Shown piece by piece: positions 1,329-26,051 of a stretch of 64,000 nt of DNA. Origin of the DNA: Pseudomonadota bacterium (GTDB lineage: Bacteria > Bdellovibrionota > Bdellovibrionia > Bdellovibrionales > Bdellovibrionaceae); assembly GCA_041178425.1 (NCBI GenBank), contig JBEGVH010000009.1:64001-128000 (forward strand), in the 5' to 3' direction. Position 1 is the first letter of the stretch, and every line of letters begins with the position of its first letter. The notes under the pieces were generated by a model that searched no databases, was not told where the DNA came from, and worked only from the letters and a program-made list of their open reading frames with translations. A program made the position numbers and the translations under genes.

Positions 1329-1578
1329 TCGAAAATTCTGATTTATTTGAGCATAGCTTAGCAAGTTAAATTCTTCGAACCGAAGCTCCCGAGGGCTTTT
1401 TGGGAACTCCATAAATTTTACTTATTTACAGCGGGGGCCAATTTTTGGCAACCGCGCTACCGAATCCAAAAATTCTTCTCAAATATATTCAATTTAGACA
1501 GCTCTCGATGGCACCTTTTGATGGCACGAAAACTGTATCGAGCGATGCACAACCTCGAAATAGCAAGGACCTTGACCC

Positions 1579-7531: not shown

Positions 7532-7567
7532 GTCACCTTTAATCAAAAAACTTAAGGGCCTAATGTT

Positions 7568-7876
7568 TTATTTTTTATCAGAGTATTTCGCTTCGAGATA
7601 ATCGATTATAATCTTTTGATCGCCTTCCGAAATAGGCGCACCATAGGATTGAACCATTTTATGCACGGTTTTCTCCCACCCAGCTCGATTCATCACCGGA
7701 GCATTTGTTTTGATATACTCTAAACTGTGGCAAATAATACAATAGGCAGCAACCTTTTCACCGCCCACTCCCTCTAATAATGGTTCCAACGGAGGATTTT
7801 TAACCTCCCCCGCCCACAAGAAAATGGTCTGTCCGCAAACCAAAAAAAGTGCAATAAAACTCATTTTTTTCATCAT
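7568..7876 (-). CDS. sorB: Monoheme cytochrome c, SorB-like subunit
   Basis: Signal peptide, CIICH heme motif, W...V.KM...YGAPI pattern; directly downstream of a sulfite oxidase-family gene. Start at ATG 7876 or 7873 after GGAG. Confidence 0.8.
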   Translation of the reverse strand: MMKKMSFIALFLVCGQTIFLWAGEVKNPPLEPLLEGVGGEKVAAYCIICHSLEYIKTNAPVMNRAGWEKTVHKMVQSYGAPISEGDQKIIIDYLEAKYSDKK

Positions 7877-7887
7877 ACAAGCTCCCA

Positions 7888-9081
7888 TCACTCGCCAACG
7901 ACTTGAATAGACTGGATCGCGTTATTATGGTATCCCGAAGGGTTGTGGACGGGACTCGTCGGTTGATTTTCTCCAGCGTCGTTCGTCGCTCTGGCCATAA
8001 CTTGATATTCGCTGCCTTTGTTGGGCGAAAATTTAAATGAAAAAGGGCGCCACGAATATTTACCTGGCTGCTCTCCCAATGTCGCCAAACTCCAATTTTT
8101 TCCAGCATCAATAGAAACTTCTACTTTTTGAATTCCATGACCACCATCCCAAGCAAATCCTTGGACACTGAATTCACTGCCACTCTTCAACTTCGCACCC
8201 TCTTTGAGATTGGTAATGAGTGAATTAATGAGTAACGATGAGATTGGAACCGATTTTTCATCTTCCTGCGAAGCAAAGCCTTTCTCCACCGTTGGAAACT
8301 TTCCTTTTTCAATCCGATAAGCTTTCTTCATCCAAAAATTATCTGAAGGCTTCGTTAGCGCTTCAATCGAAACCACCTCCTTAACCCAGTAACTCGCCAC
8401 CCAACCAGGAACGATGAGCCTCACCGGAAACCCATTACCCTTGGGCAGAGGTGCACCATTCAGCTCATAGGCAAGCAAGGTAGAGTCATCCATAGCTCTC
8501 TCGATTGGTATACTCTTCACGAAATCGGGGGTTCCCGGCAAGGTTGGAAAATCAGCACCGTTAAAAGCAATCTCGATAGTCTTTGGATTTATTCCTGCCC
8601 GCTGCAATACTTCTTTTAACCGAACGCCTCTCCACAAACCATTTCCAATGGCACCCTTACCCCACTGCACCCCTGGCACCCTTGGGTTAAACTCAGAACG
8701 GCGATTGCCTGCACACATTGACACCGCAGAAACCTCAACAGCAGTAAAGTCTTTCTTTAGTTTCGCCAAACTTAATTTGAATGGCTTTTCGAAACCCTCA
8801 CCATGAATTGAAATTTCCCATTTTTTTTCTACGACTTCTGTTGAATTGGGAAGATGACTGCGAACAAAGAATTTGTTGTTTGGTGTGTAGAGTGTATTGA
8901 GCTCTTCAATCGGTGTTTCGTAGTTGTGGGGGCGATCCGTCTGACGAATTAGGTCTGTTTCAAGATTTTTCTTGGGGGAGACAGCCTTCGAACCAGCAAC
9001 ACTCAATTCAGCCAAGCCTAAACAATTAAATGCTATTAAAAACAAATAACAAAAGTGGGATCCAAAGCTAAATAACTTCAT
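7888..9081 (-). CDS. sorA: Sulfite oxidase-family molybdoenzyme, SorA-like sulfite:cytochrome c oxidoreductase
   Basis: FFVRSH, Mo-ligating CAGNRR, WGKGAIGN, NGFPVRLIVPGW.ASYWVK, Ig-like dimerisation domain ending HNPSGYHNN. Confidence 0.85.
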   Translation of the reverse strand: MKLFSFGSHFCYLFLIAFNCLGLAELSVAGSKAVSPKKNLETDLIRQTDRPHNYETPIEELNTLYTPNNKFFVRSHLPNSTEVVEKKWEISIHGEGFEKPFKLSLAKLKKDFTAVEVSAVSMCAGNRRSEFNPRVPGVQWGKGAIGNGLWRGVRLKEVLQRAGINPKTIEIAFNGADFPTLPGTPDFVKSIPIERAMDDSTLLAYELNGAPLPKGNGFPVRLIVPGWVASYWVKEVVSIEALTKPSDNFWMKKAYRIEKGKFPTVEKGFASQEDEKSVPISSLLINSLITNLKEGAKLKSGSEFSVQGFAWDGGHGIQKVEVSIDAGKNWSLATLGEQPGKYSWRPFSFKFSPNKGSEYQVMARATNDAGENQPTSPVHNPSGYHNNAIQSIQVVGE

Positions 9082-9433
9082 TTTATCCTCTGTGATGTTT
9101 TCTTAGAACCTTTTCGTTCATTGACTCTGAAACTATAGTAATGAAAGAGCCTTCGTCCAGCACAAAACGTGGTCCTCAATGAAGGTCTAACTCGATGAGG
9201 GGCCGATCAACTGAAGTCAACTCTTCTTCTCAAAATACAACATCTGGTTCCGAGACAGTGACCCCCTTTAACCATTTTAACTTTGACCGCCGGAACACGA
9301 ATCAACTAACCTTTAGTGGAAGCTAGGGTGCATTTACAATTGAGACACCATAGTTAGATAAAGTAAACGATGTGCTGGGACATGGTTTCCCATTCGGTAC
9401 TGGCTAAAATAAAACATGAGAAGGAGTTCATAA

Positions 9434-10393
9434 ATGAAACAACTTAGAGCAAACATCAGGCATTTAGTCGCAATTTCATTATTTACCCTCAGCGCCGTAA
9501 CCACCCAGGCCGCCGACGAGTTCTTCATAACCGCTGAGGAGGCACAAAAATTACCCGCCGAATCAGTTCGTTTTGTTTATGCTGACTCTGAGAAAGACTT
9601 CGAAAAAGGCCATATTCCTAATTCAGTCGTCGCTTATGCCCACGATCTGAATTATCTCGATGACGTAAACAAGTGTAAAGGGCTTCCAATGTGCGAACCC
9701 ACAGCCGCGGCCTTCATTGGAAAGACTCTTGGCATTGATAACAAAACAAAGGTTGTTGTGTATGATTCTGGCGCTGGGGTAAATGCCTCTGGAGCTTGGT
9801 TCTTCATTACCCTTTACGGCCATCCCGATGTAAAAATTCTTGATGGAGGCCTTGCCAACTGGAAAGACAAAAAGTTCGCCGTAGAAACGGGTCATGGCAG
9901 CAAAGTAGCTGAAAAAACTTTTACCCCATCGATTAAAGCCGACATGTATGCCACTCGCGATGAAGTAGAAAAAGCGACTAAGGACTCTGCGCACTATTTA
10001 ATTCTCGACTCTCGACACAATCTAGACGAATACACAGGAAAACAATTATTAAGCGGCCTGACAGCTCCGGGAAAAGAGTCTACAGTTTCTCGCGGGGGCT
10101 TTATTCCAACAGCGGTTTTTTCTCCTTGGAAAAAGTATGCTGGCAATCCCAATGGCGACGCAGGCAAACCTACACTCAAAGGCAGCGACGATATCAACAA
10201 GCAATTAGAAAAACTTAAGAAGAACGGCTACGATCAAAATAAGACGGTCATCACTTACTGCCACGTTGGGCTTGGTCGCGGTTCATTCCAATATTTAGCG
10301 CTTTTACGAGCCGGCCATAAAAATGCAAAATTATATACGGGGTCTTGGCAAGACTGGGGCAACTCAAGCCTCCCGCTAGGAAAACAAGAGTAA
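9434..10393 (+). CDS. Periplasmic tandem-domain rhodanese / sulfurtransferase
   Basis: Sec signal (…TTQA), GHIP, LDGGL..W, C-terminal active loop YCHVGLGR, LYTGSWQDW; AAGGAG RBS. Confidence 0.9.
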   Translation: MKQLRANIRHLVAISLFTLSAVTTQAADEFFITAEEAQKLPAESVRFVYADSEKDFEKGHIPNSVVAYAHDLNYLDDVNKCKGLPMCEPTAAAFIGKTLGIDNKTKVVVYDSGAGVNASGAWFFITLYGHPDVKILDGGLANWKDKKFAVETGHGSKVAEKTFTPSIKADMYATRDEVEKATKDSAHYLILDSRHNLDEYTGKQLLSGLTAPGKESTVSRGGFIPTAVFSPWKKYAGNPNGDAGKPTLKGSDDINKQLEKLKKNGYDQNKTVITYCHVGLGRGSFQYLALLRAGHKNAKLYTGSWQDWGNSSLPLGKQE

Positions 10394-10429
10394 AAATTAA
10401 TTATTTTTTTCAACGACCAAGGAGGGAAC

Positions 10430-11557
10430 ATGTGGTTAGCGGCATTTAAAGGAGCATTAACGGGCCTTCTTTTTGGAATGGTTCTTTATAAAGTTGGTGC
10501 TTCTCGCTACTCGAGAGTCATGGGAATGTTGACAGTGAGAGACACTAAAGTAATGAAGTTTACCTTCGTGACGATTGCCACAGCTTCTTTTATCTACGGA
10601 CTAGCAGACATTTTTGGGTTTGCAGAATCTTGGCATCTCGTACCTCGAATCATGCCCTACATGGGAGCTTCGCACATCATCGGCGGCGTTCTCTTTGGCG
10701 CAACCCTCGGATGGGTTGGTTTTTGCCCGGGCACATGTTGGGCTAAGGCAGGAGGAATGGGAGGAGATAAAAAATTTACGGCCCTCTCTTCGATCCTTGG
10801 TCTTTTGGCAGGGATTCTCATTTACAACTTCTTCAAAGAATCCATGATGAGCAATGGAATTATCGCTACCGAGCAAAAACCCCTTACACTCCATGGTGTC
10901 CTAGGCCTTTCTTATGGGGCCGCAGCAATCACTTTTGGAGCGATTTTTCTTTTGATTGCAGTGCTTATTGACCGCGGTACCACCGAAAAGTTTTTTACCC
11001 CATCCATTCAACCAAAAGCTATTATTGATTGGATCAGAGGTGAGTGGAGCTGGATGGCTTCGGGAGTTCTTGCTGGAATTCTTATTACTGCCGCAACGAT
11101 GCAAGATGGGTATTTGGGATTTTCTGGAGCACTCCTTGCTCTTGTTGGCTGGTTTTCCCATCTAGTTGGTTTTCCTATTGCTTCAGTTCCTGTGATAAAT
11201 CAGGACATTCTTTGGCGTGCTTTTTTGATTATTGGCGTTTTTCCAGGAGGACTATTAGCCAGGGCCATCTCTACTAAGTCCTTTGCCGAGGTCAATTTTA
11301 AAGGCCACAAAGTTTTCTCTCTCCCTGCGATTATAAAATCTTTCGTTGGCGGAATTGGACTCTCGCTCGGCGCCATGATCGGAGGCGGATGCACAACGGG
11401 CGCTTACCTAGCCGCATGGCCCACCCTTTCGGTGGGTAGCCTTTTAATGGGAGCCACTTTTTTTGCTTCATCCATGATCGTTGCAAATTCCCTTCTCTGG
11501 TTAAGAAAAATCAATATTGGTGACATTCAGAACCTAGGCGACAAGGTTTGCGACTAA
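10430..11557 (+). CDS. YeeE/YedE (TsuA-like) sulfur-compound transporter, two-domain
   Basis: Polytopic membrane protein with conserved Cys motifs GFCPGT and GGGCTTG; GGAGGG RBS. Confidence 0.85.
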   Translation: MWLAAFKGALTGLLFGMVLYKVGASRYSRVMGMLTVRDTKVMKFTFVTIATASFIYGLADIFGFAESWHLVPRIMPYMGASHIIGGVLFGATLGWVGFCPGTCWAKAGGMGGDKKFTALSSILGLLAGILIYNFFKESMMSNGIIATEQKPLTLHGVLGLSYGAAAITFGAIFLLIAVLIDRGTTEKFFTPSIQPKAIIDWIRGEWSWMASGVLAGILITAATMQDGYLGFSGALLALVGWFSHLVGFPIASVPVINQDILWRAFLIIGVFPGGLLARAISTKSFAEVNFKGHKVFSLPAIIKSFVGGIGLSLGAMIGGGCTTGAYLAAWPTLSVGSLLMGATFFASSMIVANSLLWLRKINIGDIQNLGDKVCD

Positions 11558-11572
11558 TTAAAGGAAACAGAC

Positions 11573-11701
11573 ATGACAAAAACAACACGACTCGTTTTTA
11601 TTATAGCCATACTTTTAATGCTCGGAAGCTTTATTCATCTTAAAAAAAGCAACAGCGAGCTGGCTCAAACTATTTCTCAACAAAGTCAGGTGGGCCAATG
11701 A
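11573..11701 (+). CDS. Small 42-aa single-TM or signal-bearing protein (not in ORF track)
   Basis: Read by hand: MTKTTRLVFIIAILLMLGSFIHLKKSNSELAQTISQQSQVGQ*. AAGGA RBS; the stop overlaps the next start (ATGA); it fills the operon gap. Confidence 0.7.
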   Translation: MTKTTRLVFIIAILLMLGSFIHLKKSNSELAQTISQQSQVGQ

Positions 11702-12162
11702 ATTCTAAAATCGAACTGGGTGCTTATTTTACCACTATCCTAGTGCTGGCGGGCCTTCTCTTTCAAGAAGGACAAAAACGAGTCGATTTACAATCTCAAA
11801 TTTCAATCCCTCCCCAAGAGCTCTATAAAAAGTTAAGCAACTCACAAACAAAACTGCAGATCATCGACATTCGTTCTGATCAATCTTCCTATGAAGATGC
11901 ACATGTTCCCGGCGCTATCCCCCTCTATAATTGTGATTTCTTAAAAGGCAACGAGTCGACGACCAAAAATATTTTCACCTTCGCACCAACAATTATTGTT
12001 TCTGAAAATGGCGATGAAAATGTTTTCAGAGACTGCGCCAAAAACTTTACCCAAGCCAGAAACCTCGCAGGTGGTATGGCTGCATGGAGTGAAGAGGGAC
12101 TACCTGAGGATTCAAGCGAATACTCCCCACCAAAACTTTCAGGTGGCGGTGGTTGCCTCTAA
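11698..12162 (+). CDS. Membrane-anchored single-domain rhodanese-like protein with C-terminal GGGGCL tail
   Basis: N-terminal hydrophobic anchor, IIDIR..Y...HVPGAI, NLAGGMAAW. The active-loop position reads IIVSENG (no Cys). Confidence 0.8.
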   Translation: MNSKIELGAYFTTILVLAGLLFQEGQKRVDLQSQISIPPQELYKKLSNSQTKLQIIDIRSDQSSYEDAHVPGAIPLYNCDFLKGNESTTKNIFTFAPTIIVSENGDENVFRDCAKNFTQARNLAGGMAAWSEEGLPEDSSEYSPPKLSGGGGCL

Positions 12163-12230
12163 AGAATGATTTACATTTAAAATAAATCCGGTTTACCCTA
12201 AGAGGGACTCATAAGCGAAACGGAGTTCCT

Positions 12231-15146
12231 ATGACGGTATCCAGAAGAGATCTATTAAAAGCTGCAGCTCTGGGAAGTGTTGCGATCGGTAGTAACACTT
12301 TAGCCAAAAATGCCTTTACTGAGCCAATTCCTCAAAAAGAAGCAAAAGATATTCCGGTTATCGTTGAAGATCCAAGAGCCTCCTACCTGAACACAAAATC
12401 GATTGAAGATATGTACCGTCGAGAGTTTGCAGAAACCTTTGGCGAAAAAAAAGACCATGGCTATGCCTATCACTGTGTGAATTGCCAAGGGAACTGTGCT
12501 TGGCAAGTATGGACTAAAGACGGAAAGGTAACCCGCGAAAACCAATCCGCCAGCTACCCACAAATTGCACCCAATATTCCCGATTATAATCCACGAGGGT
12601 GCAACAAAGGCGTTCAGCATTCCCAAATTATGTATGAACAAGACCGCTTGCTTTACCCCATGAAAAGAGTTGGGCCACGAGGTGAAGGGAAATGGAAAAG
12701 AATTTCTTGGGATGAAGCTATTACTGAGGTCAGTGAAAACCTCTACAATACCATGCAAGAAAAAGGGCCTGCTGGAAACTATATACATATCGGAGCAGGT
12801 GTTCTTACGGAAGGGCGCGCCGCCTCCGTAAAACGCCTTGGAACTCTTCTGGGCGCGGTGAGACCCTACATCGCTTCCTACGTTGGAGATATGTTTCCTG
12901 GAGTTTCAACTGTTTATGGAGAAGGCAATATAGGCTGCACCTATGATTTTATCTTCAAAACCAATGTGGCTATTTTTTGGGGATGCAACCCCAATACCTC
13001 TCGCATTCCCGATGCCCATTTTCTTTGGGAAGGAAAATACAACGGCTCCAAAATTGTGGTTATTTCACCCGAATACAACTCTACAGCGATTCATGCCGAC
13101 TTGTGGGTTCCAATTAAGCCAGGCTACGATGGCCATCTTGCAATGGCAGTTCTAAACGAAATCGTTTTCAAAAAAATGTACAACGAATCGTTTGTCAAAG
13201 AATTCACCGACCTTCCTCTCCTCGTTCGCAAGGATAACAAAGAGCTTGTTCGTTTTGCAGAAATCGATACCAAAGATTCGAATTTCGATAGCAAATCTTC
13301 AGAAAAACTTCTCAAAAAAATTCTTAAGCGGGAATTAAAAGAACACGAAGTTTTCTTAGCTTGGAATCAAAAAACCAATAAAATGACGGTGCTTCCGGGC
13401 TCTGAAGGAAGTCCAGTTGAAACACTCCGCCTCAAAGACCGAGGATGGAACATCAACCCTGCCCTTTCTGGAACCTGGAAGATCAAACTAAAAGACGGCC
13501 ACACCGTCGAAGTGACTACGGTGTTTGATCTTTTCAAACAAGAACTCAAAAAATTTGATCCACTCCGCATGCACGCAGTCACAGGCGTTCATCCAACGAT
13601 CGTTAGCGAACTGGCCCGCGACATGATTGTTCCTAAAAACACCTTAGTGACAATGGGGTTTTCACTCGGAAAGTATTTTAATGGCATGCTCATCCAAAGA
13701 GCTATCTCCGCCCTAACGGCGATTAGCGGTCGACTTGGCGAATCTGGCGGCCTAAACACCGAAAATGAATGGAACATCACTGGGCTTTCTGGCCTCTCTG
13801 GATTTGAAGGCAAATACCAGCATCGGTTTGCTTCTGGATTTGTGAGCGAGTACATGCTCGGTGACAATTTAAATGACTACGATCATCTCTACGCAGAAGC
13901 TGAAATTAAAGAGAGCACTGGACTCGGTAAAAAACAGTATCGAGAGAAAATTGAGAAAATAGTCAAAGACGGCGCCAACGATGAGGGATTTAAAAACGGC
14001 AAGCCTTATTGGACGACCATGGAAACCTTTTTGTTGTTCGCCGATGCGCGCTTTCGACGAAACAAAGGAAGCTACAAAGAAGCGTTCCTTAAAAAAGCTA
14101 AGTTTATTGCCTATGGCGATTACAGAATGTCTGATTTTTGTAACTACGCCGACATTTTACTCCCCTGCAAATCCCACTATGAGGTATGGGACATTAGAAC
14201 AAATCCGGGCTATCACCGTTTTGCTAATATTGCCTACCCTCCTGCAAACTTGAAAAATGTGGGAGAAGCTAAGTCCGAATGGGAGATCTCGACTCTTATC
14301 GCAGAAAAAATTCAAGACATCGCCCTGAAAAAATACAAATCTTCAGGTGATAAAAAAGCGATTCACGTGCCCGACACAACACACACTCAAACTGGGTTTC
14401 GTGCCCTCGACGAGGTCGTCAATGAGTTTACCATCGGAGGCAAAGTCCGATCAGACAAAGATGCTGTGGAGTACATGCTCGAGCACGTGGATCAGTTCAA
14501 GCCTAATTCGACAAAAACCATGTATGAGCGTGGAGGCTTTTTGGTTCTCAATGATAAAGCCGGAAAAAGCTCGCCACTCTACTCAAATAAGCCCTACAAT
14601 ACGTTTGAAAGTAACAAGCTCTTGTACCAACCTTTTGAAACGCTCACCGGACGACTCACCTTCTACGTTGATCATCACTTGTGGATTGAAACAGGGGCTC
14701 ACATACCGACAGCACGCAATCCGATCCGGCCCAAAAAGTTTCCGTTTGTACTGATGACACCACACGCACGATGGTCAATTCACTCAACCTATAAAACTTC
14801 TAAGATCCTCCAGCGACTGCAACGAGGTAAACCTTATATCATGATCAATCCTAAGGTTGCGGAGGCAAAAGGAATCAAGGACGGCGATGAGGTTAAAATG
14901 TTTAATGACCTTGGCGAAACGTTCCTCATGGCAAAAATAACTCCTTCGGCTCCTGAGCATTCTCTCGTGATGGAACACGGATGGGAACCCTTCATGTACA
15001 AGAATAAGGTTGGGCATAACGCGCTTGTGGGCGATATGATAAATTTGCTCGAACTCAGTGATGGATGGGGTCACCTTAAATTTGGAACGAACTGGGATGG
15101 AAACCAACACGCTTATGAAACCACAGTAGATATTGTGAAAGCTTAG
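12231..15146 (+). CDS. Tat-exported DMSO-reductase-family type II molybdoenzyme, catalytic alpha subunit (Nar/Ser/Clr/Pcr/Ebd/Ddh-like clade); substrate unknown
   Basis: SRRDLLK twin-arginine signal; FS0 motif HCVNCQGNC...RGCNKG; candidate Asp Mo-ligand in YVGDMFPG; TPHARWSIHS molydopterin-dinucleotide-binding domain. Confidence 0.92.
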   Translation: MTVSRRDLLKAAALGSVAIGSNTLAKNAFTEPIPQKEAKDIPVIVEDPRASYLNTKSIEDMYRREFAETFGEKKDHGYAYHCVNCQGNCAWQVWTKDGKVTRENQSASYPQIAPNIPDYNPRGCNKGVQHSQIMYEQDRLLYPMKRVGPRGEGKWKRISWDEAITEVSENLYNTMQEKGPAGNYIHIGAGVLTEGRAASVKRLGTLLGAVRPYIASYVGDMFPGVSTVYGEGNIGCTYDFIFKTNVAIFWGCNPNTSRIPDAHFLWEGKYNGSKIVVISPEYNSTAIHADLWVPIKPGYDGHLAMAVLNEIVFKKMYNESFVKEFTDLPLLVRKDNKELVRFAEIDTKDSNFDSKSSEKLLKKILKRELKEHEVFLAWNQKTNKMTVLPGSEGSPVETLRLKDRGWNINPALSGTWKIKLKDGHTVEVTTVFDLFKQELKKFDPLRMHAVTGVHPTIVSELARDMIVPKNTLVTMGFSLGKYFNGMLIQRAISALTAISGRLGESGGLNTENEWNITGLSGLSGFEGKYQHRFASGFVSEYMLGDNLNDYDHLYAEAEIKESTGLGKKQYREKIEKIVKDGANDEGFKNGKPYWTTMETFLLFADARFRRNKGSYKEAFLKKAKFIAYGDYRMSDFCNYADILLPCKSHYEVWDIRTNPGYHRFANIAYPPANLKNVGEAKSEWEISTLIAEKIQDIALKKYKSSGDKKAIHVPDTTHTQTGFRALDEVVNEFTIGGKVRSDKDAVEYMLEHVDQFKPNSTKTMYERGGFLVLNDKAGKSSPLYSNKPYNTFESNKLLYQPFETLTGRLTFYVDHHLWIETGAHIPTARNPIRPKKFPFVLMTPHARWSIHSTYKTSKILQRLQRGKPYIMINPKVAEAKGIKDGDEVKMFNDLGETFLMAKITPSAPEHSLVMEHGWEPFMYKNKVGHNALVGDMINLLELSDGWGHLKFGTNWDGNQHAYETTVDIVKA

Positions 15147-15169
15147 ATTTTTAAGGATAGGAAATCGAT

Positions 15170-17324: not shown

Positions 17325-17332
17325 GAGTGCTT

Positions 17333-17755: not shown

Positions 17756-18611
17756 ACTCCGTTTGTTGGTCTTCGGAAACCTTGAATTTTCCTTGGGCCA
17801 ATAATCTATCGATAATAACGCTAAAGTATTGTTTTTGATCGCTAGTGCCAGAAGTTGTAATTGGAACTCCCAAGTCTGAAGCCTCTCTTATTTGAACATC
17901 TAAAGGAATTTGGCCAAGAAAAGGAATTTCATACTGCTCAGCCAAAAGCAATCCGCCCATCTCACCAAACAGAAAATGTTTCTGCTTCGTAGTAGGATCC
18001 TCAAAATAGCTCATATTTTCGATGATTCCACCAATGGGGGCATTGATTTCTTGAAGCATACGAATGGCCCGTCGAACATCATCGGTAGCCACAGTTTGAG
18101 GGGTAGTTACTACAATTGACGATGTCACGTGGAGTTCTTGGAAAATCGTCAACTGACTATCGCCCGTCCCTGGCGGCATATCGATCACTAAAAAATCAAG
18201 TGCGCCCCAAGCAACGTCGTCAAGGAGTTGAATCATAGCACTTGTGGCAACCGACGATCGCCACATCAATGGCGTATCAGGTTTTGGTGTCGTTAAGCCT
18301 GGACTCATAATCTTAAGCCCAAAATTTTCAGAAGGAACTATCTTATTATCATTATTCCAGTGAAGCCGCTCGTTCTCAACCTGCAACATTCGGGGAACAC
18401 TCGGTCCATAAACATCGGCATCTAGTATTCCAACGGTAAAATCTCTTTGAGCCAATGCACTTGCCAAATGAACTGCAACGGTTGACTTGCCCACCCCGCC
18501 TTTTCCGCTGGTAACAATAACCACATTTTTTGCGTAGGGAGCACGATTATTTGGTTTTTGAGTGCTGCCAAAGGGAACTTTATTTTTCATTGAAGCGTTA
18601 TTTAATGCCAT
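17739..18611 (-). CDS. mrp: Mrp/ApbC/NBP35 Fe-S cluster carrier ATPase
   Basis: SGKGGVGKST, DADVYGPS, DMPPGTGD, IIENMSYF. The usual CPxC after ENMSYF reads EDPTT. Confidence 0.9.
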   Translation of the reverse strand: MALNNASMKNKVPFGSTQKPNNRAPYAKNVVIVTSGKGGVGKSTVAVHLASALAQRDFTVGILDADVYGPSVPRMLQVENERLHWNNDNKIVPSENFGLKIMSPGLTTPKPDTPLMWRSSVATSAMIQLLDDVAWGALDFLVIDMPPGTGDSQLTIFQELHVTSSIVVTTPQTVATDDVRRAIRMLQEINAPIGGIIENMSYFEDPTTKQKHFLFGEMGGLLLAEQYEIPFLGQIPLDVQIREASDLGVPITTSGTSDQKQYFSVIIDRLLAQGKFKVSEDQQTEFTDSL

Positions 18612-18667
18612 AAACCAAAGGTATTAACGATATCGCCATCGTGCAAGTAAATCTGTAGGTATTTTTT

Positions 18668-19759
18668 CTACGACACGCTCTCAATACCGCCCACCAAAGA
18701 AAATATCGGAGCCCCCTTATAATCTTGTAACAACTCTAAAGCTTGCAGTGATCGAACCCCTTTTTGACAATACAAAACAATTTTCTTTTCGATGGGACCA
18801 AAACGATGTCCATTGATTAAATCAGAAAGTGGCCAATGAAGAGCTCCGTCTAAATGCCCCCGCTCCCACTCAGACTGCTCACGCACATCGACCAGAGTGA
18901 CTTGATTTTTTTTTAGCCAAATTTGAACTTCACTCCAACTCACCTCTGAGGCACGCGAACAAATGGGCAAACTGAATTGAACCGGTATTTCATTGCCTTC
19001 TCGACTACAACACACACAGGTTTTATTCTTCTTAACCTGTAATTTTAGGGTGTCTAATTCATCCATCTGAAAAAAAACAATTCTACCCAAGGGGGGATAC
19101 AGGGCATGGGCAGGATCACCCCCTGAAATAATCCATTTAAGAACGAGAGAAGCCTGTGCCGTACCAATCATGCCCACCAGAGGCCCCAAAACTCCAGACG
19201 CTGAACAATTTTTTATTAGAGCCCGTGGTTCCTCAGGTAAAAAACAACGGTAACACGGCCCCTGTGAGCTATGAAATAAACCAAACTGACCTTCGAAGCG
19301 ATCAACTGCGCCATAAATCATAGGTTTTTTGAGCTTGTGCGAAATGGCGGCAATTAAAAACTTTGTACTGAAATTATCACTTCCGTCGATGATAATATCA
19401 TAATTAGAAACGATATCTTCTGCATTTTCAGAATTTAAATTTTCTTGGTAAATATTTATTTTACAATCGGAGTTGATCTTTTTTAGTTGTCTCTCTGCAA
19501 CGTTCACTTTCGGCAAGCCCTCATCGGAAGGAGAGAACAATATTTGCCTTTGCAGATTAGTCATCGAAACTGTATCGGAATCAATCAGACCAAGAGTTCC
19601 AATTCCTGCGGCAGTGAGATAAAGTGCGGCTGGTGTGCCTAAACCTCCAACACCCACTATTAGCACCTTCGCGCTCCGAATCTTTTGTTGCCCCTCTATC
19701 CCCACAAAATCCAAACTTTCATGCCGTAAGTAACGGTTATGCTGAATCTGTTGTAGCAT
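18668..19759 (-). CDS. moeB: Molybdopterin synthase sulfurylase MoeB with C-terminal rhodanese (MoeZ/MoeBR type)
   Basis: GVGGLG, SMTNLQRQ, CYRC and CVCC Zn motifs, C-terminal rhodanese YCQKGVRS. Confidence 0.9.
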   Translation of the reverse strand: MLQQIQHNRYLRHESLDFVGIEGQQKIRSAKVLIVGVGGLGTPAALYLTAAGIGTLGLIDSDTVSMTNLQRQILFSPSDEGLPKVNVAERQLKKINSDCKINIYQENLNSENAEDIVSNYDIIIDGSDNFSTKFLIAAISHKLKKPMIYGAVDRFEGQFGLFHSSQGPCYRCFLPEEPRALIKNCSASGVLGPLVGMIGTAQASLVLKWIISGGDPAHALYPPLGRIVFFQMDELDTLKLQVKKNKTCVCCSREGNEIPVQFSLPICSRASEVSWSEVQIWLKKNQVTLVDVREQSEWERGHLDGALHWPLSDLINGHRFGPIEKKIVLYCQKGVRSLQALELLQDYKGAPIFSLVGGIESVS

Positions 19760-20142
19760 TATGATTTCCCTTCGATGTGTAAGGGCTTCGATTTAATACT
19801 AAACGAATCCACTTCGAGATGAACTTCATGAAGATCGTCTACCCCAGAAAAATCAGTTTTAAATATTCGCGTGAGTTCTTTTTTAATTCTACCCTCTCGG
19901 GCACTAGTGGCTAATTCAGCAGCCGCAGGTCTAGGAAAACGAACCAATAAGGTCATCTTTCGATCGCTCATTTGAGTGATGAAATCAAATTTTTCACCCA
20001 GCTCAATTCGCAATTCAATACTATGCGCTTCTATAGAACCAAAAGAAACTTTTTGGCAATAGGAACCGTTTGTCAGAAACATTTCGAATTCTTCGATTTG
20101 AAAACGAATTCTAATATCTCTACCTTCAAATCGAACATTCAT
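19759..20142 (-). CDS. Hypothetical protein embedded in the Moco operon
   Basis: Translationally coupled between mobA and moeB (overlapping stop/start); no motif recognised with confidence. Confidence 0.7.
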   Translation of the reverse strand: MNVRFEGRDIRIRFQIEEFEMFLTNGSYCQKVSFGSIEAHSIELRIELGEKFDFITQMSDRKMTLLVRFPRPAAAELATSAREGRIKKELTRIFKTDFSGVDDLHEVHLEVDSFSIKSKPLHIEGKS

Positions 20143-20777
20143 ATTAACTCCAAATCTGATGGCGTATTACAATTGACAAAACAGCGATCATCAATCAACG
20201 GAAAGAGACGAGTTTTTGAGCGCTCTATCAAATTTAGAAAACTTCTACTCTTTTTTGAAAGCTGAAGTAACTCTTCTATATTTTCAACAACGGAAGGACT
20301 CGCTCTCAAGAGAATCGGAAAAACTTTTCCCTCAAAACAAAGAATTTCAGTCTCATCATCGTCCCTTCGTTGATTCACTAGATCGTACAAAAAATGCGGT
20401 TCCATCAGCGGCATATCAACTGGCATCACCAAAAGCCAAGCATCATTAATCCCTTTTTCGAGGAGCGATCGAATAACCGAGTAGAGCCCTCCGAGGGGCC
20501 CTAATCCTGGACTGATATCGGCGATACCGTCGTAGCCCTCAATCGTACCACTTAGCATTACTGAATAATTCTCAGTAACAAACTCACGGAGCATCCCAAG
20601 CGAACGATCGATCCATTTTTGACCGTCTTTTAATAAAAATCGCTTATCTTGCCCCATCCTCCGAGATTCACCCCCAGCAAGAACAACTGGTATTAGAGGT
20701 GCGCAGCACAAGAATGTTTTATCTCCTGCGTTTTCTCTTTGTGCCGATGCTGACATAATGCATGTCCCTTGAGCCAT
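20139..20777 (-). CDS. mobA: Molybdenum cofactor guanylyltransferase
   Basis: LAGGESRRMGQDK, GPLGGL, VDMP, NCNTP. The true start is probably the TTG near 20711 (AGGAG upstream), overlapping the end of moaE. Confidence 0.88.
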   Translation of the reverse strand: MAQGTCIMSASAQRENAGDKTFLCCAPLIPVVLAGGESRRMGQDKRFLLKDGQKWIDRSLGMLREFVTENYSVMLSGTIEGYDGIADISPGLGPLGGLYSVIRSLLEKGINDAWLLVMPVDMPLMEPHFLYDLVNQRRDDDETEILCFEGKVFPILLRASPSVVENIEELLQLSKKSRSFLNLIERSKTRLFPLIDDRCFVNCNTPSDLELI

Positions 20778-21193
20778 TCTGTTTCTCCGTCTTCATAGTG
20801 TTCTTTCTTCCAAATGGGGGCTCGAATTTTAATTTGCTCAATAATGAATCGCGAGGCCATGTAAGACTCATCCCGATGAAGTGAGCTTACACCAATGCCA
20901 ACACTCACCTCACCTACTGCTAACTGACCGACTCGATGCTGTACATAAATTCTAAGATCTTTACCCCAATGATCCTGAGCCTCTCTTGCAATTTCACGCA
21001 AAATTTTCTCTCCCAAGGGGGCGTAGGCATCGTAGCTCACAGCCATCACGGTCTTGCCTAAATTTACCTCTCTCACCGCGCCAAAAAAATAATTTTGAGC
21101 TCCATGCTGCATTTGCTGAGTGAACTGAAAGATGGCTTCAGGATCGAGTGGTCCCTCTGCTATACAACAAAAAACTTCACCGTATTCAGACAT
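20693..21193 (-). CDS. moaE: Molybdopterin synthase large subunit
   Basis: F.GAVR, YDAY, HRVGQL.VGE, SSLHR, IKIRAPIWKKE; start ATG 21193 immediately after moaD. Confidence 0.92.
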   Translation of the reverse strand: MSEYGEVFCCIAEGPLDPEAIFQFTQQMQHGAQNYFFGAVREVNLGKTVMAVSYDAYAPLGEKILREIAREAQDHWGKDLRIYVQHRVGQLAVGEVSVGIGVSSLHRDESYMASRFIIEQIKIRAPIWKKEHYEDGETEWLKGHALCQHRHKEKTQEIKHSCAAHL

Positions 21194-21194
21194 A

Positions 21195-21458
21195 CTACCC
21201 TCCACAGACGGGTGGAAGAATTGCAATTTCGCCACCTGGCACAACTAAGTCATGAGATGAATAAATTGACTCATCATTCGCGATAGCAGAGTCCAGAACC
21301 AGTTGATCGTCTTCAAATTGAGGATTCCTTTTTCGGAGAGCCTGACCAATTAACTGTTTTACCTCGCCGACAGTAATCTCGGAAGAGTGATCTATAACGA
21401 TATGTGTGTCATTTCCAACATACTTTCGAAAGGCCCCAAATAAACGAACTCTAGTCAT
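21195..21458 (-). CDS. moaD: Molybdopterin synthase sulfur carrier subunit
   Basis: Ubiquitin-like, V.LFG...; C-terminus AILPPVCGG. Confidence 0.9.
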   Translation of the reverse strand: MTRVRLFGAFRKYVGNDTHIVIDHSSEITVGEVKQLIGQALRKRNPQFEDDQLVLDSAIANDESIYSSHDLVVPGGEIAILPPVCGG

Positions 21459-21459
21459 T

Positions 21460-22722
21460 TTAAATTCCCCTCTCTATTTCAAAATACTCAACCATAGCAC
21501 CAGAATCAGTGACATTGCCAAACTCAGGTAAAATAACCCAAGCATTCGCTTCGCTAAAGTTTCCAACAAGGTATGAACCCTGCTGTGGAACAATCTCTGC
21601 AACACACTCCGCCTCTTCCTGAGTCACTCGCGCCTTGTAAAAGCAGGTCAACCCTTTTGGCTTTTTCATATCAAACCTGACTTTTGCCGTTCGTTTTTCT
21701 CTCTGAGTTCTGCCGAAACGCTCATTCAAATAGGGCCGAACAAAAAACTCAAGAGCCACTGCCGTACTCACAGGATTTCCTGGCATTCCAAAGACGGGAA
21801 TCGAAGAGCCCTTTTCCTGCAAAAAAATCTCTGCAAATAGTAATGGTTTAGCGGGTCTAATTGCCACTTTATGAAAATGAATAGTGGCCTTCAAATCCTT
21901 AAGAGCGGGCACAATAAAATCATATTTTCCCATCGAGACCGCGCCCGTAGTTAGAATAAGATCAACACCACTCACTAACACCCGTTTGAAAAGTTCAATA
22001 TAGGCTTGAGGTTCATCTGGGACCAGACCATAATTGATGACTTCGCATCCCAGGTTTTGGAGCTTAGATTCTAGATAGGGACCCGTGCAATTACGTATTT
22101 TTCCATGCGGCATTTGAGACTCTCTAAAATCAACAAGCTCAGAACCGGTCGACAGAATAGCGATACGAGGCTTTCTACAAACAGGAGCCTGGGTAATTCC
22201 GCAGGCAGCCAATGGCAAAATCATATCGATTCGAAAAACAGAACCCTTAGTTAAAAGTTTTTGCCCGATTTTCATATCGCTACCCGCTGGCCTGATATTT
22301 TCCAGTGGCGCGACTGCTCGGTGAATCCGAATCCAGTCTTTACCATTGGCTCGGAAACGCTCCACCTCTTCAATTTTTACCACGGCGTTAAAAGGAGAGG
22401 GAGGCACAGGCGCACCCGTCATGATTTCGAAAGCGCCTCGGTGAGAAGAAGACCCGTTAAGTCCAGTGTCTCCTGCTGCAATTTCCCCAATCACTTCGAG
22501 TTCAACAGGCGCATCAGAGGCTGCCAGAAGTGTATCGCTCGCATTGATTGCAAAACCATCCATAGCCGAATTATCAAACGATGGAACCAGGGTCTCACTG
22601 TGAATGTCCTGAGCTAGGATACGGCCTACGGCCATCGACAAATCAACCCACTCTAATGATAGATCCCCCAGAATCCTAGCCCGCTCTCTAATTGTGGTTA
22701 AGGCCTCATCGTATGAAATCAA
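21460..22722 (-). CDS. moeA: Molybdopterin molybdotransferase
   Basis: PSFDNSAMDGFA, IMTGAPVP, STGSEL, TTGAVSMG.YD, GMPGNPVS. Confidence 0.95.
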   Translation of the reverse strand: MISYDEALTTIRERARILGDLSLEWVDLSMAVGRILAQDIHSETLVPSFDNSAMDGFAINASDTLLAASDAPVELEVIGEIAAGDTGLNGSSSHRGAFEIMTGAPVPPSPFNAVVKIEEVERFRANGKDWIRIHRAVAPLENIRPAGSDMKIGQKLLTKGSVFRIDMILPLAACGITQAPVCRKPRIAILSTGSELVDFRESQMPHGKIRNCTGPYLESKLQNLGCEVINYGLVPDEPQAYIELFKRVLVSGVDLILTTGAVSMGKYDFIVPALKDLKATIHFHKVAIRPAKPLLFAEIFLQEKGSSIPVFGMPGNPVSTAVALEFFVRPYLNERFGRTQREKRTAKVRFDMKKPKGLTCFYKARVTQEEAECVAEIVPQQGSYLVGNFSEANAWVILPEFGNVTDSGAMVEYFEIERGI

Positions 22723-23809
22723 AATGAAACTCCTTATGCCGAAGCAAATGAATTATACCAAAGACTAAAAACACCCAGAGAAGATTTTTTGTCAGTAAAA
22801 CTACGGCCACTGTTGCAAAGAGATACCATCGCCCCCCTGCCTCTTTCCAACTCTGATTGGCCAGAGTGACATGGAAACAACCTACTGTGGCTAACAACAC
22901 CACGAGCAAAAATGCAGGAATGACAACACCTGTATTGGAAATTAAAAACGAAAGAACGATGAGGAGTAAACCAAAGAAAGCCGTCGATGACCAATGTCGG
23001 GCCCCAGAACGGTAATGAGCTGTTAGTCCCCCAGAACCATGACAAAAAGGCATTCCCCCAAACGCGGCGACGACTAGGTTTCCTAATCCGATCACTCCCA
23101 AAAGCTGACGAAACGTCAATTTGCTAGACTGATTTGGAAAAAGCCGGTCGCAAATAATCTTTGTAGACAGCACTGAATTTCCCATGGTCAAAAAGATTTG
23201 TGGAAGTATCAACCCGATGACCATGCCCCAACGCACATCACTCTGAGATACACCCACACTCGCTCCCAAGACTTCACCCTCAGTCCCATTCACCAGACCA
23301 ATAAAAAAGGCAATGGTAGCACTCAGGCCTAGAAGGGGAACACCACGCCACTCCGATCTCCAAAGAAGAGCACTAACGAAAACAAAACAAAGAGCAATTT
23401 CTAATGGAGGAAGGCTCGCTTTTGATGCTGATTGAACGGATTGCAGAATTAACAATACGCCTAAGCCCACTTGGAGTTGGTGAATCAATATCAGCGGAAC
23501 TTTACTGAGGATTGAATCAATTTTTTTACCCTTAAACAACAGCAGTATACAAAAAAAACCTATCCCTGCACCTGCCCAGCGAATTTCAGCAAAAGAGGCT
23601 CCAATAGCCACTGCTGCCATTGCCACTGACTTGAGTGGCTGAACTGGCATAGGCACCCGATAGTACAAGGCTGAGAACACATAAATAAAACCCGTAGAAA
23701 TTAAAAGGGGCGCCATAGATACATGAGCCTTTGAACTCAATAAGACCAAAATTGGAAACAAAATAGCCGCATCCCCAAAAGCACCAAAAAAATTACTTAC
23801 CAGCTTCAT
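22706..23809 (-). CDS. MOT1-family (sulfate-transporter-like) molybdate transporter
   Basis: PMPVQPLKSVA and FGGMPFCHGSGGLTAHYRSGAR match the two MOT1 signature motifs; hydrophobic; inside the Moco operon. Confidence 0.85.
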   Translation of the reverse strand: MKLVSNFFGAFGDAAILFPILVLLSSKAHVSMAPLLISTGFIYVFSALYYRVPMPVQPLKSVAMAAVAIGASFAEIRWAGAGIGFFCILLLFKGKKIDSILSKVPLILIHQLQVGLGVLLILQSVQSASKASLPPLEIALCFVFVSALLWRSEWRGVPLLGLSATIAFFIGLVNGTEGEVLGASVGVSQSDVRWGMVIGLILPQIFLTMGNSVLSTKIICDRLFPNQSSKLTFRQLLGVIGLGNLVVAAFGGMPFCHGSGGLTAHYRSGARHWSSTAFFGLLLIVLSFLISNTGVVIPAFLLVVLLATVGCFHVTLANQSWKEAGGRWYLFATVAVVLLTKNLLWVFLVFGIIHLLRHKEFHFDFIR

Positions 23810-24842
23810 GACCCTCTCCGCGAATCATCTTGAGAGCATGCGGTATCAACTCACTGAGAACTTGCATCCCCTCTTTGACGGCCTTTGGGCTCCCAGGCAG
23901 ACAAACAACTATTGTTTGGCCTACCTGTATTGCAACAGATCGACTCAACCACGCATTTTTAGTAAACTGCGAACCATAGCTTCTTAATCGCTCTCCGATG
24001 CCGGGAATAATCCGACCATTCATTGTCTCTGCTAAAGTATTTAGTGCTTCCGGAGTCACATCACGAGGCGACAAACCGGTGCCACCGGTCGTAATTATTA
24101 AATTGGGTTGAACTTTTTGAATCCATGCTTTGAGAGTTTCATTTATAGCGCTCACATTATCGGGAACGATTCCGTGGCTTAGGAGTTTGGAGTTGCGCTC
24201 AATGAGCCAGTCATGAATGACTGGCCCAGATCGATCTTCGTACTGGCCACGGGCTGCCCGATCACTAACAGTTAATGCACAGACTTGGATTTCGGCCCAG
24301 GCCTGATCGCCCACCAAATCCGTTTTTTTTATCAACCCACCGACTTCGCCTGCAGCAGAAGGCAAGGAGGGATTGTTCCACACCCCCGACTTACCCCCCT
24401 GCTTGAACTCGAGTTGAACATCACCAATTCGCAAAACTGGATCAACACCCTTGGCGAGATCATAGATGCAAAGAAGGGCTGCTGTCGCGCCACAAAGAGC
24501 CTCCATTTCAACACCGGTTTTACCAACCGTCTGGGCTTCACAAGAGACTTTTATTCGATTATTTTCTTCAAACTCAGTCCATACTCTGACCGACGACAGA
24601 TCGAGCGGATGGCAGAGCGGCAAAAGGTCGATGGTTCGTTTGGCAGCCTGAATACCCGCCACCTCGCAAAGCACAAGAACATCGCCTTTTGGCAGGCGAC
24701 GCTCTTTAATCAATTGAAGAGTTTCGGGCTGAGCGTAAAAAAATCCGCTGGCCCGGGCAATACGATGGGTTTCCCCCTTAGCCGAGATATCAATCATTCG
24801 AAAATTAGCCACCGATTTCGGCGAAATTGGCTGTTGTTCCAT
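23793..24842 (-). CDS. moaC: MoaC-MogA/MoaB fusion
   Basis: N-terminal MIDIS.K, LLPLCHP, TGVEMEAL, K.GGKSG (MoaC); C-terminal TVSDR..DRSG, TTGGTGLSPRDVTPEA, LPGSPKA (MogA/MoaB). Confidence 0.92.
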   Translation of the reverse strand: MEQQPISPKSVANFRMIDISAKGETHRIARASGFFYAQPETLQLIKERRLPKGDVLVLCEVAGIQAAKRTIDLLPLCHPLDLSSVRVWTEFEENNRIKVSCEAQTVGKTGVEMEALCGATAALLCIYDLAKGVDPVLRIGDVQLEFKQGGKSGVWNNPSLPSAAGEVGGLIKKTDLVGDQAWAEIQVCALTVSDRAARGQYEDRSGPVIHDWLIERNSKLLSHGIVPDNVSAINETLKAWIQKVQPNLIITTGGTGLSPRDVTPEALNTLAETMNGRIIPGIGERLRSYGSQFTKNAWLSRSVAIQVGQTIVVCLPGSPKAVKEGMQVLSELIPHALKMIRGEGHEAGK

Positions 24843-25791
24843 AAATTCCTTTTTGCAATTGATGGGATATTTTTTTGTTAACCATAAGTTCTTTTATCAC
24901 ATTGGGAAGATCTCTCATTTGCTCGTCGCTTTGAAGCCACGGGCGAAGATCAAGATCTCCATCTCCAAACAAACAGAGGCGTAATTTTCCGCGGGCAGAA
25001 ACCCGCAAGCGATTGCAAGAATGGCAAAAATCGTTAGAGTACGGTGCAATCAAACCAATCGAACCCTGAAATTCTGGGTGCACAAAAACATCGGCAGGGC
25101 CATCTTGAAGTCCTCTCTCGATGGACTCCCAACCACGCCGAAACAACTCTTCCCTAACGACTCCCGTCGATAAATGTCGGTCGGCAAAAAAATCCAAATT
25201 ATCTCCCGTCTTCATCAATTCGATAAACCGTATACTAATCTGACGATTTTTTGCGTAATTGAGGAAAGCCCCAACTTCAGAATCATTGAGTCCTTTTAAA
25301 AGAACAACATTCACTTTGATTTTTGTGAAACCAATGACCAAGGCATCATCAATACAATCGATGATTTGATGAAATAGCGGTGATCCTGTAATTTTGGCAA
25401 AACTTTCATTTTTCAAACTATCAAGACTTATATTTAAAGCCGACAAACCAGCTTTTTTTAAATCAGGCAAGAGCGACCTTAAGCGAAAGGCATTCGTTGT
25501 AAGCGCTATATTTTTGATGTTTTTTTGGGACGAAATTGTTTCGATAATTTCTAAAATATCTTTTCGAAGAGTTGGTTCTCCTCCAGTAATGCGAACTTTC
25601 TGAAAACCCAAAGATGAAAAACCATGAACCAAACGACGAATTTCTTCCAGACTCATTTCATTGGCAGTCTCGCATGGATTCTTCTTGTATCCATTAGGCA
25701 AGCAATAGGAACAGCGAAAATTACAACGATCGGTCACCGACAGTCGCAAGTATTTAAATGTTCGCCCGAATGAATCCCTTAACTCGCCCAT
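24805..25791 (-). CDS. moaA: GTP 3',8-cyclase (radical SAM)
   Basis: LRLSVTDRCNFRCSYC, TGGEP, CHSCNRLR...LCLF, C-terminal IGG. Confidence 0.96.
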   Translation of the reverse strand: MGELRDSFGRTFKYLRLSVTDRCNFRCSYCLPNGYKKNPCETANEMSLEEIRRLVHGFSSLGFQKVRITGGEPTLRKDILEIIETISSQKNIKNIALTTNAFRLRSLLPDLKKAGLSALNISLDSLKNESFAKITGSPLFHQIIDCIDDALVIGFTKIKVNVVLLKGLNDSEVGAFLNYAKNRQISIRFIELMKTGDNLDFFADRHLSTGVVREELFRRGWESIERGLQDGPADVFVHPEFQGSIGLIAPYSNDFCHSCNRLRVSARGKLRLCLFGDGDLDLRPWLQSDEQMRDLPNVIKELMVNKKISHQLQKGIYGTTANFAEIGG

Positions 25792-25916
25792 GATTCCCCT
25801 TGTAGAGTGTTAGGAATTTCAATTTCTCAAAATTCCCTGGTAGCCAAAACATTTTGACCACGACATCAACCGCTTATTAATTTTCAAATTAACTTAGCCG
25901 ATGATGCTCGGAGACC
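25792..25916 (-). promoter_or_regulatory. Candidate Moco riboswitch (Moco RNA motif) in the moaA leader
   Basis: Minus strand reads GGTCTCCGAGCATCATCGGCTAAG...CGGTTGATG-TC-GTGGTCAAAA/TTTTGGCTAC-CAGGGAATTTTGAGAAATTGAAATTCCT...AAGGGGAATC-ATG. Stacked stems and the CAGGG..GAAAT..CCT element resemble the E. coli moaA leader. Confidence 0.7.
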
Positions 25917-26051
25917 TTTTTCTTAAAATAAACAACTGTTATAGTAGCCAGCAATAAAAGAGCTTCGCAAGATTTTTCTCCTGTCCTTTTTTGACTCAGT
26001 TTGCCGAGGGAATAAGCCTATAGAAAGGGCCACATCAAACATCTGAACTTG

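Follow-up and report, generated by a model that had tools for sequence, protein, structure and literature searches.

An optional molybdoenzyme island in a Moco-poor family

The locus raises the question of what a secreted type II molybdoenzyme, encoded among rhodaneses and a YeeE/YedE channel in a Bdellovibrio-like bacterium, acts on, and in which direction. We analysed a 64,000-nucleotide stretch, here called the window, in which every gene of the set listed by the initial annotation was found intact, in the same order and on the same strands (Table 1). A contig from another study carries the empty site, where window position 7529 is joined to 26059 and 18,529 bp are skipped; the near-identity of that strain rests on 530 and 442 bases of flank. 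A second sequencing run contained the entire stretch in one contig. The 18.5-kb island, a real unit and an optional one, codes for a type II molybdoenzyme that is secreted, together with the full set of cofactor genes that this enzyme needs, and the empty-site allele implies that Mo-dependent sulfur chemistry was gained or lost in one step. The island ends have no terminal repeats (no shared word longer than 8 bases) and no tRNA, no integrase was found for the island, and GC content does not mark it out. Promoter and terminator scans gave chance-level counts (36 versus 29.0 ± 5.7 and 18 versus 20.9 ± 4.8, respectively). Congeners keep the right flank and carry different genes on the left side, and therefore do not define the site.

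Table 1. Features of the island, in window positions.
Feature	Position	Strand	Remarks
Whole island	7530..26058	.	absent from empty-site allele, which has 31 other bases instead
SorB-like monoheme cytochrome c	7568..7873	-	NF052246 E 3e-20, below cut-off
SorA-like sulfite dehydrogenase, sulfite oxidase family	7888..9081	-	best PDB match 2blf_A
RhdA, secreted tandem rhodanese	9434..10393	+	signal peptide read from sequence; Cys276, Cys81/Cys87
YeeE/YedE sulfur channel	10430..11557	+	conserved Cys99, Cys103, Cys321
42-aa single-helix membrane microprotein	11573..11701	+	overlaps rhdB start
RhdB, membrane-anchored rhodanese fold without catalytic Cys	11698..12162	+	Gly-rich Cys tail at end
Alpha, type II DMSO-reductase family	12231..15146	+	Tat signal, His/3Cys FS0, Asp220 Mo ligand
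Beta, four Fe-S clusters	15170..16165	+	TIGR03478 above cut-off
Gamma, EbdC-like heme b domain fused to c-type cytochrome	16158..17324	+	PF00034
Secreted OB-fold protein	17327..17755	+	invariant Cys43/Cys59, FKGCL tail (Cys141); predicted alpha partner
Mrp/ApbC Fe-S carrier	17739..18611	-	in 28/67 loci
MoeB with rhodanese domain	18668..19759	-	profile match
127-aa ORF	19759..20142	-	weak DUF7009
MobA	20139..20777	-	profile match
MoaE	20693..21244	-	longest ORF; start probably near 21193
MoaD	21195..21458	-	profile match
MoeA	21460..22722	-	profile match
MOT1 molybdate transporter	22706..23809	-	profile match
MoaC-MogA/MoaB fusion	23793..24842	-	NF002947 above cut-off
MoaA	24805..25791	-	TIGR02666 above cut-off

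The host genome, rated 100% complete, held no second moaA, moaC, moeA, mobA or MOT1 by tblastn, which together with the empty site bears out the earlier proposal that the island brings its own cofactor supply. Within the host family, moaA was found in 9 of 121 genomes, and in the other eight it lies no more than about 6 kb from a NarG-sized gene; in a family so poor in Moco, moaA is thus as a rule carried next to a Mo enzyme. PF00384 matched only the island alpha subunit and an ACIII-type ActB in the genome. The genome has neither SoxB nor SoxC, so the supposed pathway is indeed Sox-independent in this host, and its periplasmic location was likewise supported. Three matches to heme-copper oxidase subunit I (aa3/cbb3 oxidases), an SQR/PDO cluster outside the island and a HoxFUYH hydrogenase are present. 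Because no RuBisCO, NirK or NirS was found in the genome, the lithoautotrophic reading and nitrite respiration are unsupported; with SQR/PDO and oxidases, the host is therefore fitted for lithoheterotrophy or detoxification at most. Island SorA and SorB fell short of the NCBIfam thresholds, with 384/600 and 72/93, yet each has its Sor family as the best one; in the PDB, SorA matches the SorA of Starkeya novella best (E 2e-86).

A separate clade of type II enzymes

Alpha phylogeny placed the enzyme in a clade of its own (support 1.0), two branches from ClrA in a tree lacking SerA and verified DdhA, and outside the ClrA, Pcr-like, Ebd-like and Nar branches. This agrees with the view of an uncharacterised type II enzyme. 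ClrA was the best named match (35% identity over 95% of length), and the nearest full-length branches beyond the clade, P0125 and P0127, bear the generic JGI label 'dimethylsulfide dehydrogenase/complex iron-sulfur molybdoenzyme'. The EbdA model NF042978 gave 354/2000 bits on alpha, below cut-off, and the Ebd-like P0159 branches elsewhere; TIGR03479 (795/985) and TIGR03477 (105/170) also stayed below their cut-offs. Beta passed the TIGR03478 cut-off, and gamma matches EbdC and carries a fused c-type cytochrome that the initial annotation had overlooked. Alpha has His81, Cys85, Cys89 and Cys124 as FS0 ligands, and its Asp220, aligned with the Asp of PcrA and EbdA, is invariant (66/66). The pattern Y-4x-D-11x-Q, given for the Nar/Nxr pocket in PMC6050957, is absent from alpha, which has invariant Ala215 and Gly232 at those positions.

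The nearest named branch, the ClrABDC/SerABDC/DdhABC group, shares with the island a Tat-exported alpha, the His/3Cys FS0, the Asp ligand, a four-cluster beta and an EbdC-like heme b gamma. The island enzyme differs in its separate clade and invariant pocket sequence, in the cytochrome c-gamma fusion, in its constant rhodanese and Cys-tail partners, and in lacking a chlorite dismutase gene and a delta chaperone gene. PF02613 detected no such chaperone (NarJ/TorD/DmsD-like) in the genome, an accessory trait and no part of the core definition of the family. With PcrAB, EbdABC, NarGH and NxrAB it has the superfamily and the Asp ligand in common, whereas its alpha stands on a distinct branch without the Nar/Nxr motif, NarI/NarJ or catabolic partners; the typical partners of known type II enzymes, chlorite dismutase included, are missing as claimed. 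Over 120 protein clusters at no less than 61% identity are named only generically, so that a known function would re-annotate many genomes.

A conserved module with cysteine-tailed proteins

The set of RhdA, YeeE, RhdB, alpha/beta/gamma and secreted protein recurs in Myxococcota, Aquificota and Bdellovibrionota. Among 67 loci, which come from related genomes and are not independent cases, RhdA was present in 61, YeeE in 65, RhdB in 65 and the tail protein in 56, every miss falling at a contig end. A sister form, 52-54% identical, was found at 69 loci, with RhdA in 51; where gamma was present, the Cys-tail protein was found in 54 of 61, and the other seven were cut by the contig (six) or had a different gene (one). 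Alpha homologues keep the rhodanese and YeeE carrier genes, and alpha nests in no characterised clade, contrary to what would have refuted the earlier proposal. The idea of the sulfur island as one unit holds for the rhodaneses and YeeE; sorA (14/67 loci) and the full Moco operon (2/67) are accessory and outside the conserved module. Other neighbours are an aa3 oxidase operon directly downstream (10/67), an ArsR-rhodanese regulator upstream (18/67), PDO (5) and, after the module, a Tat-exported Psr/Soe-type quinone-linked Mo enzyme with NrfD (18/67).

Two features of the carrier proteins had been missed at first. RhdB ends in GGGCL and the OB-fold protein in FKGCL, so both terminate in Gly-Cys-Leu, with the cysteine invariant in 66/66 and 57/57, respectively. 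The catalytic Cys276 of RhdA is invariant as well (62/62), whereas S, T, G or A takes the catalytic position of RhdB. A crude scan found microprotein-like ORFs in 25 of 63 loci, with a constant gap size. The OB-fold protein had no sequence match in Pfam, NCBIfam or PDB, and only unnamed ones, under 0.9, in the ESM Atlas. Its model has OB-folds as top structural matches (best Z 6.8, rmsd 3.4, 81 aligned) and puts the penultimate cysteine on an unstructured stretch. SoxY was not among the best 50 structural matches, which excludes nothing, and the island tails do have the SoxY-like trait of a C-terminal cysteine on a flexible Gly-rich arm.

Complex modelling predicted that the OB-fold protein docks on alpha. 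The pair scored 0.80 against 0.00 for the best of three controls, on a scale whose mark was reached by 116/157 solved pairs and 2/215 mismatched pairs; runs agreed in at least 75% of contacts, with a partner pLDDT of at least 81. In this model, built without cofactor, the interface takes in tail residues as well as alpha 515-517, and the tail cysteine is not among the confident contacts. Residues 515-517 adjoin Trp514. Its counterpart in the alignment with PcrA is the Trp, a gate residue, that differs between 4ydd and 5e7o. Interface residues are as conserved as the whole of alpha (0.76 versus 0.76).

Proposed oxidation of carrier-bound sulfur

We propose, with a probability of about one half, that the enzyme oxidises carrier-bound sulfane sulfur in the periplasm and passes electrons to cytochrome c and O2. 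Periplasmic RhdA would remove the sulfane atom from thiosulfate or polysulfide, freeing sulfite, and/or YeeE would carry sulfane sulfur through the membrane and deliver it to the tail of the tethered RhdB. The sulfur would pass to Cys141 of the OB-fold protein, and alpha would add water-derived oxygen by two-electron steps until sulfite is released. Electrons may run from Mo through the Fe-S clusters, heme b and the fused cytochrome c to aa3/cbb3 oxidases and O2, while SorAB would turn sulfite into sulfate. In the host, this could supplement heterotrophic energy or serve detoxification, beside the SQR/PDO cluster elsewhere. The oxidative wiring is proposed because of the gamma-fused cytochrome c and the adjacent aa3 operons, ArsR-rhodanese and PDO genes. 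Type II enzymes perform two-electron chemistry on small-molecule substrates; we know of no precedent for a protein-bound one, and this would be, to our knowledge, the first.

The same carriers might serve the opposite or a mixed direction; the earlier proposal had left the direction undecided. Here a cytochrome c-fed enzyme would reduce or split thiosulfate, tetrathionate or an S-sulfonate bound to the tail, in respiration or disproportionation of a sulfur oxyanion. The closest named relative, ClrA, is a reductase, and Clr/Ser-type neighbours are cytochrome c-fed (ClrABDC with a c-type cytochrome); the host has HoxFUYH, and the Psr/Soe-type enzyme with NrfD suits reduction or disproportionation just as well. 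We consider this direction unlikely, as cytochrome c donates electrons poorly to low-potential sulfur acceptors, aa3 operons adjoin ten of the modules, and the host is otherwise fitted for O2 respiration.

Oxidation of a free small sulfur compound (DMS, thiol, sulfide or polysulfide) in the manner of DMS dehydrogenase, with the tail protein as a fourth subunit of purely structural role and by-products handled by the rhodaneses, would fit the label of P0125 and P0127 and a complex model in which the OB body, not the cysteine, is bound. A structural subunit, however, needs no invariant penultimate cysteine on an unstructured tail, seen here in two unrelated folds, and the RhdA catalytic cysteine is invariant, which makes this decidedly unlikely. 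That the enzyme reduces chlorate, selenate or nitrate (or is a nitrite oxidoreductase), the sulfur or selenium genes being incidental, is improbable: the ClrA match and a weak RhdA match to ExtH of selenite/tellurite operons (51 bits, cut-off 200) point that way, but alpha nests in none of the Clr, Pcr-like or Nar branches, a different invariant sequence replaces the pocket pattern of PMC6050957, and Cld, the delta chaperone, NirK and NirS are absent from the genome. The cysteine in every tail found argues against it too, and lends no support to the selenium analogue once suggested for the pathway.

Relation to Sox and other sulfur systems

Oxidation of carrier-bound sulfane sulfur would follow a Sox-like logic built from unrelated parts. 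Like SoxYZ/SoxCD, as described in PMC13500833 and PMC11237559, the proposed scheme has sulfur on a C-terminal Cys swinging arm, where it is oxidised by a Mo enzyme that sits in the periplasm and is connected to heme c. No homology to SoxYZ/SoxCD was found: the island carrier models as an OB-fold, the enzyme is of the DMSO-reductase and not the sulfite-oxidase family, and the loader is a rhodanese, not SoxAX. SoxT proteins transport sulfur for oxidation (PMC11582611). The island YeeE has conserved cysteines as do YeeE/TsuA and SoxT channels, but is flanked by periplasm-facing carriers instead of TusA/YeeD.

At cut-off, 40 of 51 carrier genomes lack SoxB, and SoxC was found in one. The 15 Aquificota carriers had SoxB in 11, SoxC in none and DsrA in none; Aquificota in general lack SoxCD according to PMC13500833, and soxCD is present in Sulfurovum (PMC10045233); if the sister form is campylobacterial, it would be no simple substitute for SoxCD. 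A CCG-domain search for sHdr was unspecific, with matches in 15/15 Aquificota; inspection of one genome by eye showed an isolated Fe-S ORF of 420 aa and an ORF of 293 aa linked to Sdh, so that sHdr may still be present in these genomes. The module is a testable candidate for completing sulfur oxidation in truncated-Sox bacteria without rDsr or sHdr. More tentatively, at somewhat under even odds, it may be a further sulfane-oxidation route beside SoxCD, rDsr, sHdr and PDO, one that reinvents Sox swinging-arm chemistry from a rhodanese loader, an OB-fold Cys-arm carrier and a type II Mo-bisPGD enzyme with a protein-bound substrate. In truncated-Sox Hydrogenothermaceae such a route would supply what is missing, and in myxobacteria and Bdellovibrio-like bacteria the module would arrive as a portable island, with presence and absence even within one species.

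A literature search, with subscription papers such as Kameya 2017 outside its reach, found no description of the operon. The RhL lineage, considered as 'rhodanese-linked', was rejected, RhL being resorcinol hydroxylase in PMC10100899; the word 'rhodanese' is absent from PMC7331816. In the supplementary table for Sulfurovum MH2-6, the 'molybdopterin oxidoreductase' that is up-regulated proved to be SorA, and the table contained none of the module motifs. The module is scarce in the host phylum (4/401 genomes), and it is also carried by a cultured strain, Sulfurihydrogenibium yellowstonense SS-5 (locus L048).

The island, its empty site and its cofactor genes

Every gene listed for the island (window 7530..26058) in the initial annotation was found in the window, and none is broken.

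Genes of the island by strand, with window coordinates
Feature	Position	Strand
sorB/sorA		minus
rhdA, yeeE, 42-aa ORF, rhdB, alpha, beta, gamma, secreted 142-aa protein		plus
42-aa ORF	11573-11701	plus
mrp and molybdenum cofactor operon		minus

The gene for the secreted tail protein and mrp are convergent and overlap by 17 bases (17739-17755), spanning the Cys-tail codons. The host genome (G000, 3.06 Mb, completeness rating 100%) carries the window on contig C9. Its earlier description as Bdellovibrio-like is true at the order level, and alpha has matches in entries of the same order and phylum.

Four sequencing runs, out of five listed, were compared with the window. In run X2 one contig spans the entire stretch with 69 differences. 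Many of these, and an insertion of three bases, lie at 7477-7903, around sorB and the left end of the island, perhaps a trace of recombination. Run X5, from a separate study, yielded a 5,540-bp contig (depth 9.2) that links 7529 to 26059, with 18,529 bp absent and 31 different bases instead; its left flank (530 bases) differs at 15 positions and its right flank (442 bases) at none. X5 also contains short island fragments at lower depth. The island is thus a real unit, the support being this single X5 contig. Its borders are the stop codons of two flanking convergent genes. No integrase or tRNA lies next to it, the longest word common to both ends has at most 8 bases, and its GC content is not unusual. 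The empty site alone does not separate gain from loss; gain is favoured because the alpha orthologue is rare, occurring in 4 of 401 phylum genomes (host included) and 0 of 53 other family genomes. Window positions 423-1412 (minus), 1579-4404 (plus) and 6377-7531 (plus) encode a protein with a fibrinogen-like GGGW domain and two proteins that look secreted and match neither Pfam nor NCBIfam.

The host's sole matches to moaA, moaC, moeA, mobA and MOT1 sit in the island. Only 9 of 121 family genomes have moaA, and the other eight carry a different Mo-enzyme gene within about 6 kb of it (26-34% identity, mostly NarG-sized). The family thus gains any such enzyme together with cofactor genes. NarG-sized type II enzymes (about 1160-1250 aa) are scattered across Bdellovibrionota (loci L073-L098, L108-L112), beside moaA in family members.

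A type II enzyme outside the compared subfamilies

Alpha has a Tat motif, a His/3Cys FS0 site and Asp220, which aligns with the PcrA and EbdA ligand; ClrA is its closest named match (35%). A FastTree phylogeny (71 sequences, 882 columns) drew on 16 of 67 loci, 47 representatives of at least 800 aa, six plasmid references and one outgroup. In this tree, built without verified SerA, DdhA or NxrA, alpha forms a clade of support 1.0 outside the ClrA, Pcr-like (P0134), Ebd-like (P0159) and Nar branches, in line with the uncharacterised type II enzyme described at the outset. At the position of the Nar/Nxr pattern Y-4x-D-11x-Q, given in an excerpt of PMC6050957, the clade has a different, invariant sequence. 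Gamma combines an EbdC-like heme b domain with a fused cytochrome c. Chlorite dismutase, delta chaperone, NirK, NirS and RuBisCO are absent from the host genome, rated 100% complete. Judged by sequence, the enzyme belongs to the type II family and to no characterised subfamily among those compared.

Conserved partners of the enzyme

Neighbourhoods were surveyed at 67 loci from Myxococcota, Aquificota, Bdellovibrionota and others, obtained from the best 80 of 318 matches, to which all counts out of 67 refer. YeeE and rhdB are present at 65 loci each, beta at 64, rhdA at 61, gamma at 58 and the secreted protein at 56, and all absences fall at contig ends. The predicted association of rhodanese and YeeE with alpha is therefore kept. 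SorAB, which the initial proposal placed in the pathway, is not a constant partner: sorA occurs at just 14 loci and sorB at 7. Mrp was found at 28, moaA at 12 and moaC/moeA/mobA at 2. With the window counted, the catalytic Cys of RhdA, a secreted tandem rhodanese, is invariant (62/62); RhdB lacks a catalytic Cys and ends in a Gly-rich Cys tail (66/66); and the secreted protein ends in FKGCL (57/57).

A search with the sister form (52-54% identity) gave 69 loci, 4 of them of the main branch. RhdA is present at 51 and a Cys-tail protein at 54 of the 61 with gamma; yeeE (1) and rhdB (3) occur at main-branch loci every time. Because sister-form loci outside the main branch lack both, the irreducible core is rhodanese, alpha/beta/gamma-c and Cys-tail protein.

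Further neighbours among the 67 loci are an ArsR-rhodanese regulator (18), a Psr/Soe-type Mo enzyme (18), aa3 oxidase (10), persulfide dioxygenase (5) and TauE (3). The sorA and Psr/Soe loci do not overlap, among loci that are related and have limited flanks. The Psr/Soe-type enzyme (Tat-exported, 1088 aa; L062:16571-22600 and 17 further loci) is accompanied by NrfD, a TorD-like chaperone and a polyferredoxin, and reaches the cut-off of none of the NCBIfam models. Cytochrome c, SCO and aa3 oxidase genes lie immediately downstream of the module on the same strand (L023:10805-14686 and nine further loci). In L027 and L042 (Bdellovibrionota), rhdA and/or yeeE are displaced; sorA of L027 is 68% identical and on the same strand.

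Predicted docking of the tail protein

The tail protein was modelled (pLDDT 89.8) as a beta-barrel with an unstructured 12-residue tail; generic OB-folds top its structural matches (Z 6.8, none at or above 8). Its predicted complex with alpha 79-966, modelled without beta and cofactor, scored 0.80 against 0.00 for the best control; the score mark is passed by 116 of 157 solved pairs versus 2 of 215 mismatched pairs. Contacts agreed by at least 75% between runs, with partner pLDDT of at least 81. Among the confident contacts are residues 135, 136 and 138 of the tail and 515-517 of alpha; Cys141 is absent from those named. Alpha 515-517 adjoin a Trp that aligns with a gating Trp of PcrA, the residue changed in 5e7o. 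Interface conservation is no higher than that of alpha overall. The model supports binding of the tail protein to alpha, which falls short of showing catalysis.

Proposed function and sulfur context

We favour, at roughly even odds (about 0.5), oxidation of carrier-bound sulfane sulfur in the periplasm. The type II enzyme would oxidise sulfane sulfur held on a carrier, electrons would pass to cytochrome c and on to O2, and the sulfite product would go to SorAB. The proposed working resembles that of SoxYZ/SoxCD, whereas the enzyme is not a member of that system. A reductive or disproportionating use of these carriers is unlikely; a Ddh-like dehydrogenase acting on a free substrate seems less likely still, and an oxyanion reductase is the most doubtful of these alternatives. 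No published description of the operon was found in a literature search.

Among 51 incomplete genomes, all module carriers (50 of the 67 loci plus the host), SoxC exceeded the cut-off in one, and SoxB in 11 that are all Aquificota. Neither SoxC nor DsrA was detected by cut-off search in the 15 incomplete Aquificota carriers; an excerpt of PMC13500833 describes truncated Sox as typical for Aquificota. The host has a second sulfur cluster (L099, G000:C13:55069-59297) with a CRP-type regulator, rhodanese, split YeeE/YedE-like pair, SQR-like flavoprotein and persulfide dioxygenase. It also encodes HoxFUYH, ACIII (identified, like two small membrane ORFs, by sequence reading) and aa3/cbb3-type oxidases. 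The HoxFUYH-W operon for an NAD-linked NiFe hydrogenase lies at G000:C28:31302-36410 (L100) in this Bdellovibrio-like host. Cytochrome oxidase subunit I matches at contig ends (G000:C23:59458 and C10:206564) may be one assembly-split gene.
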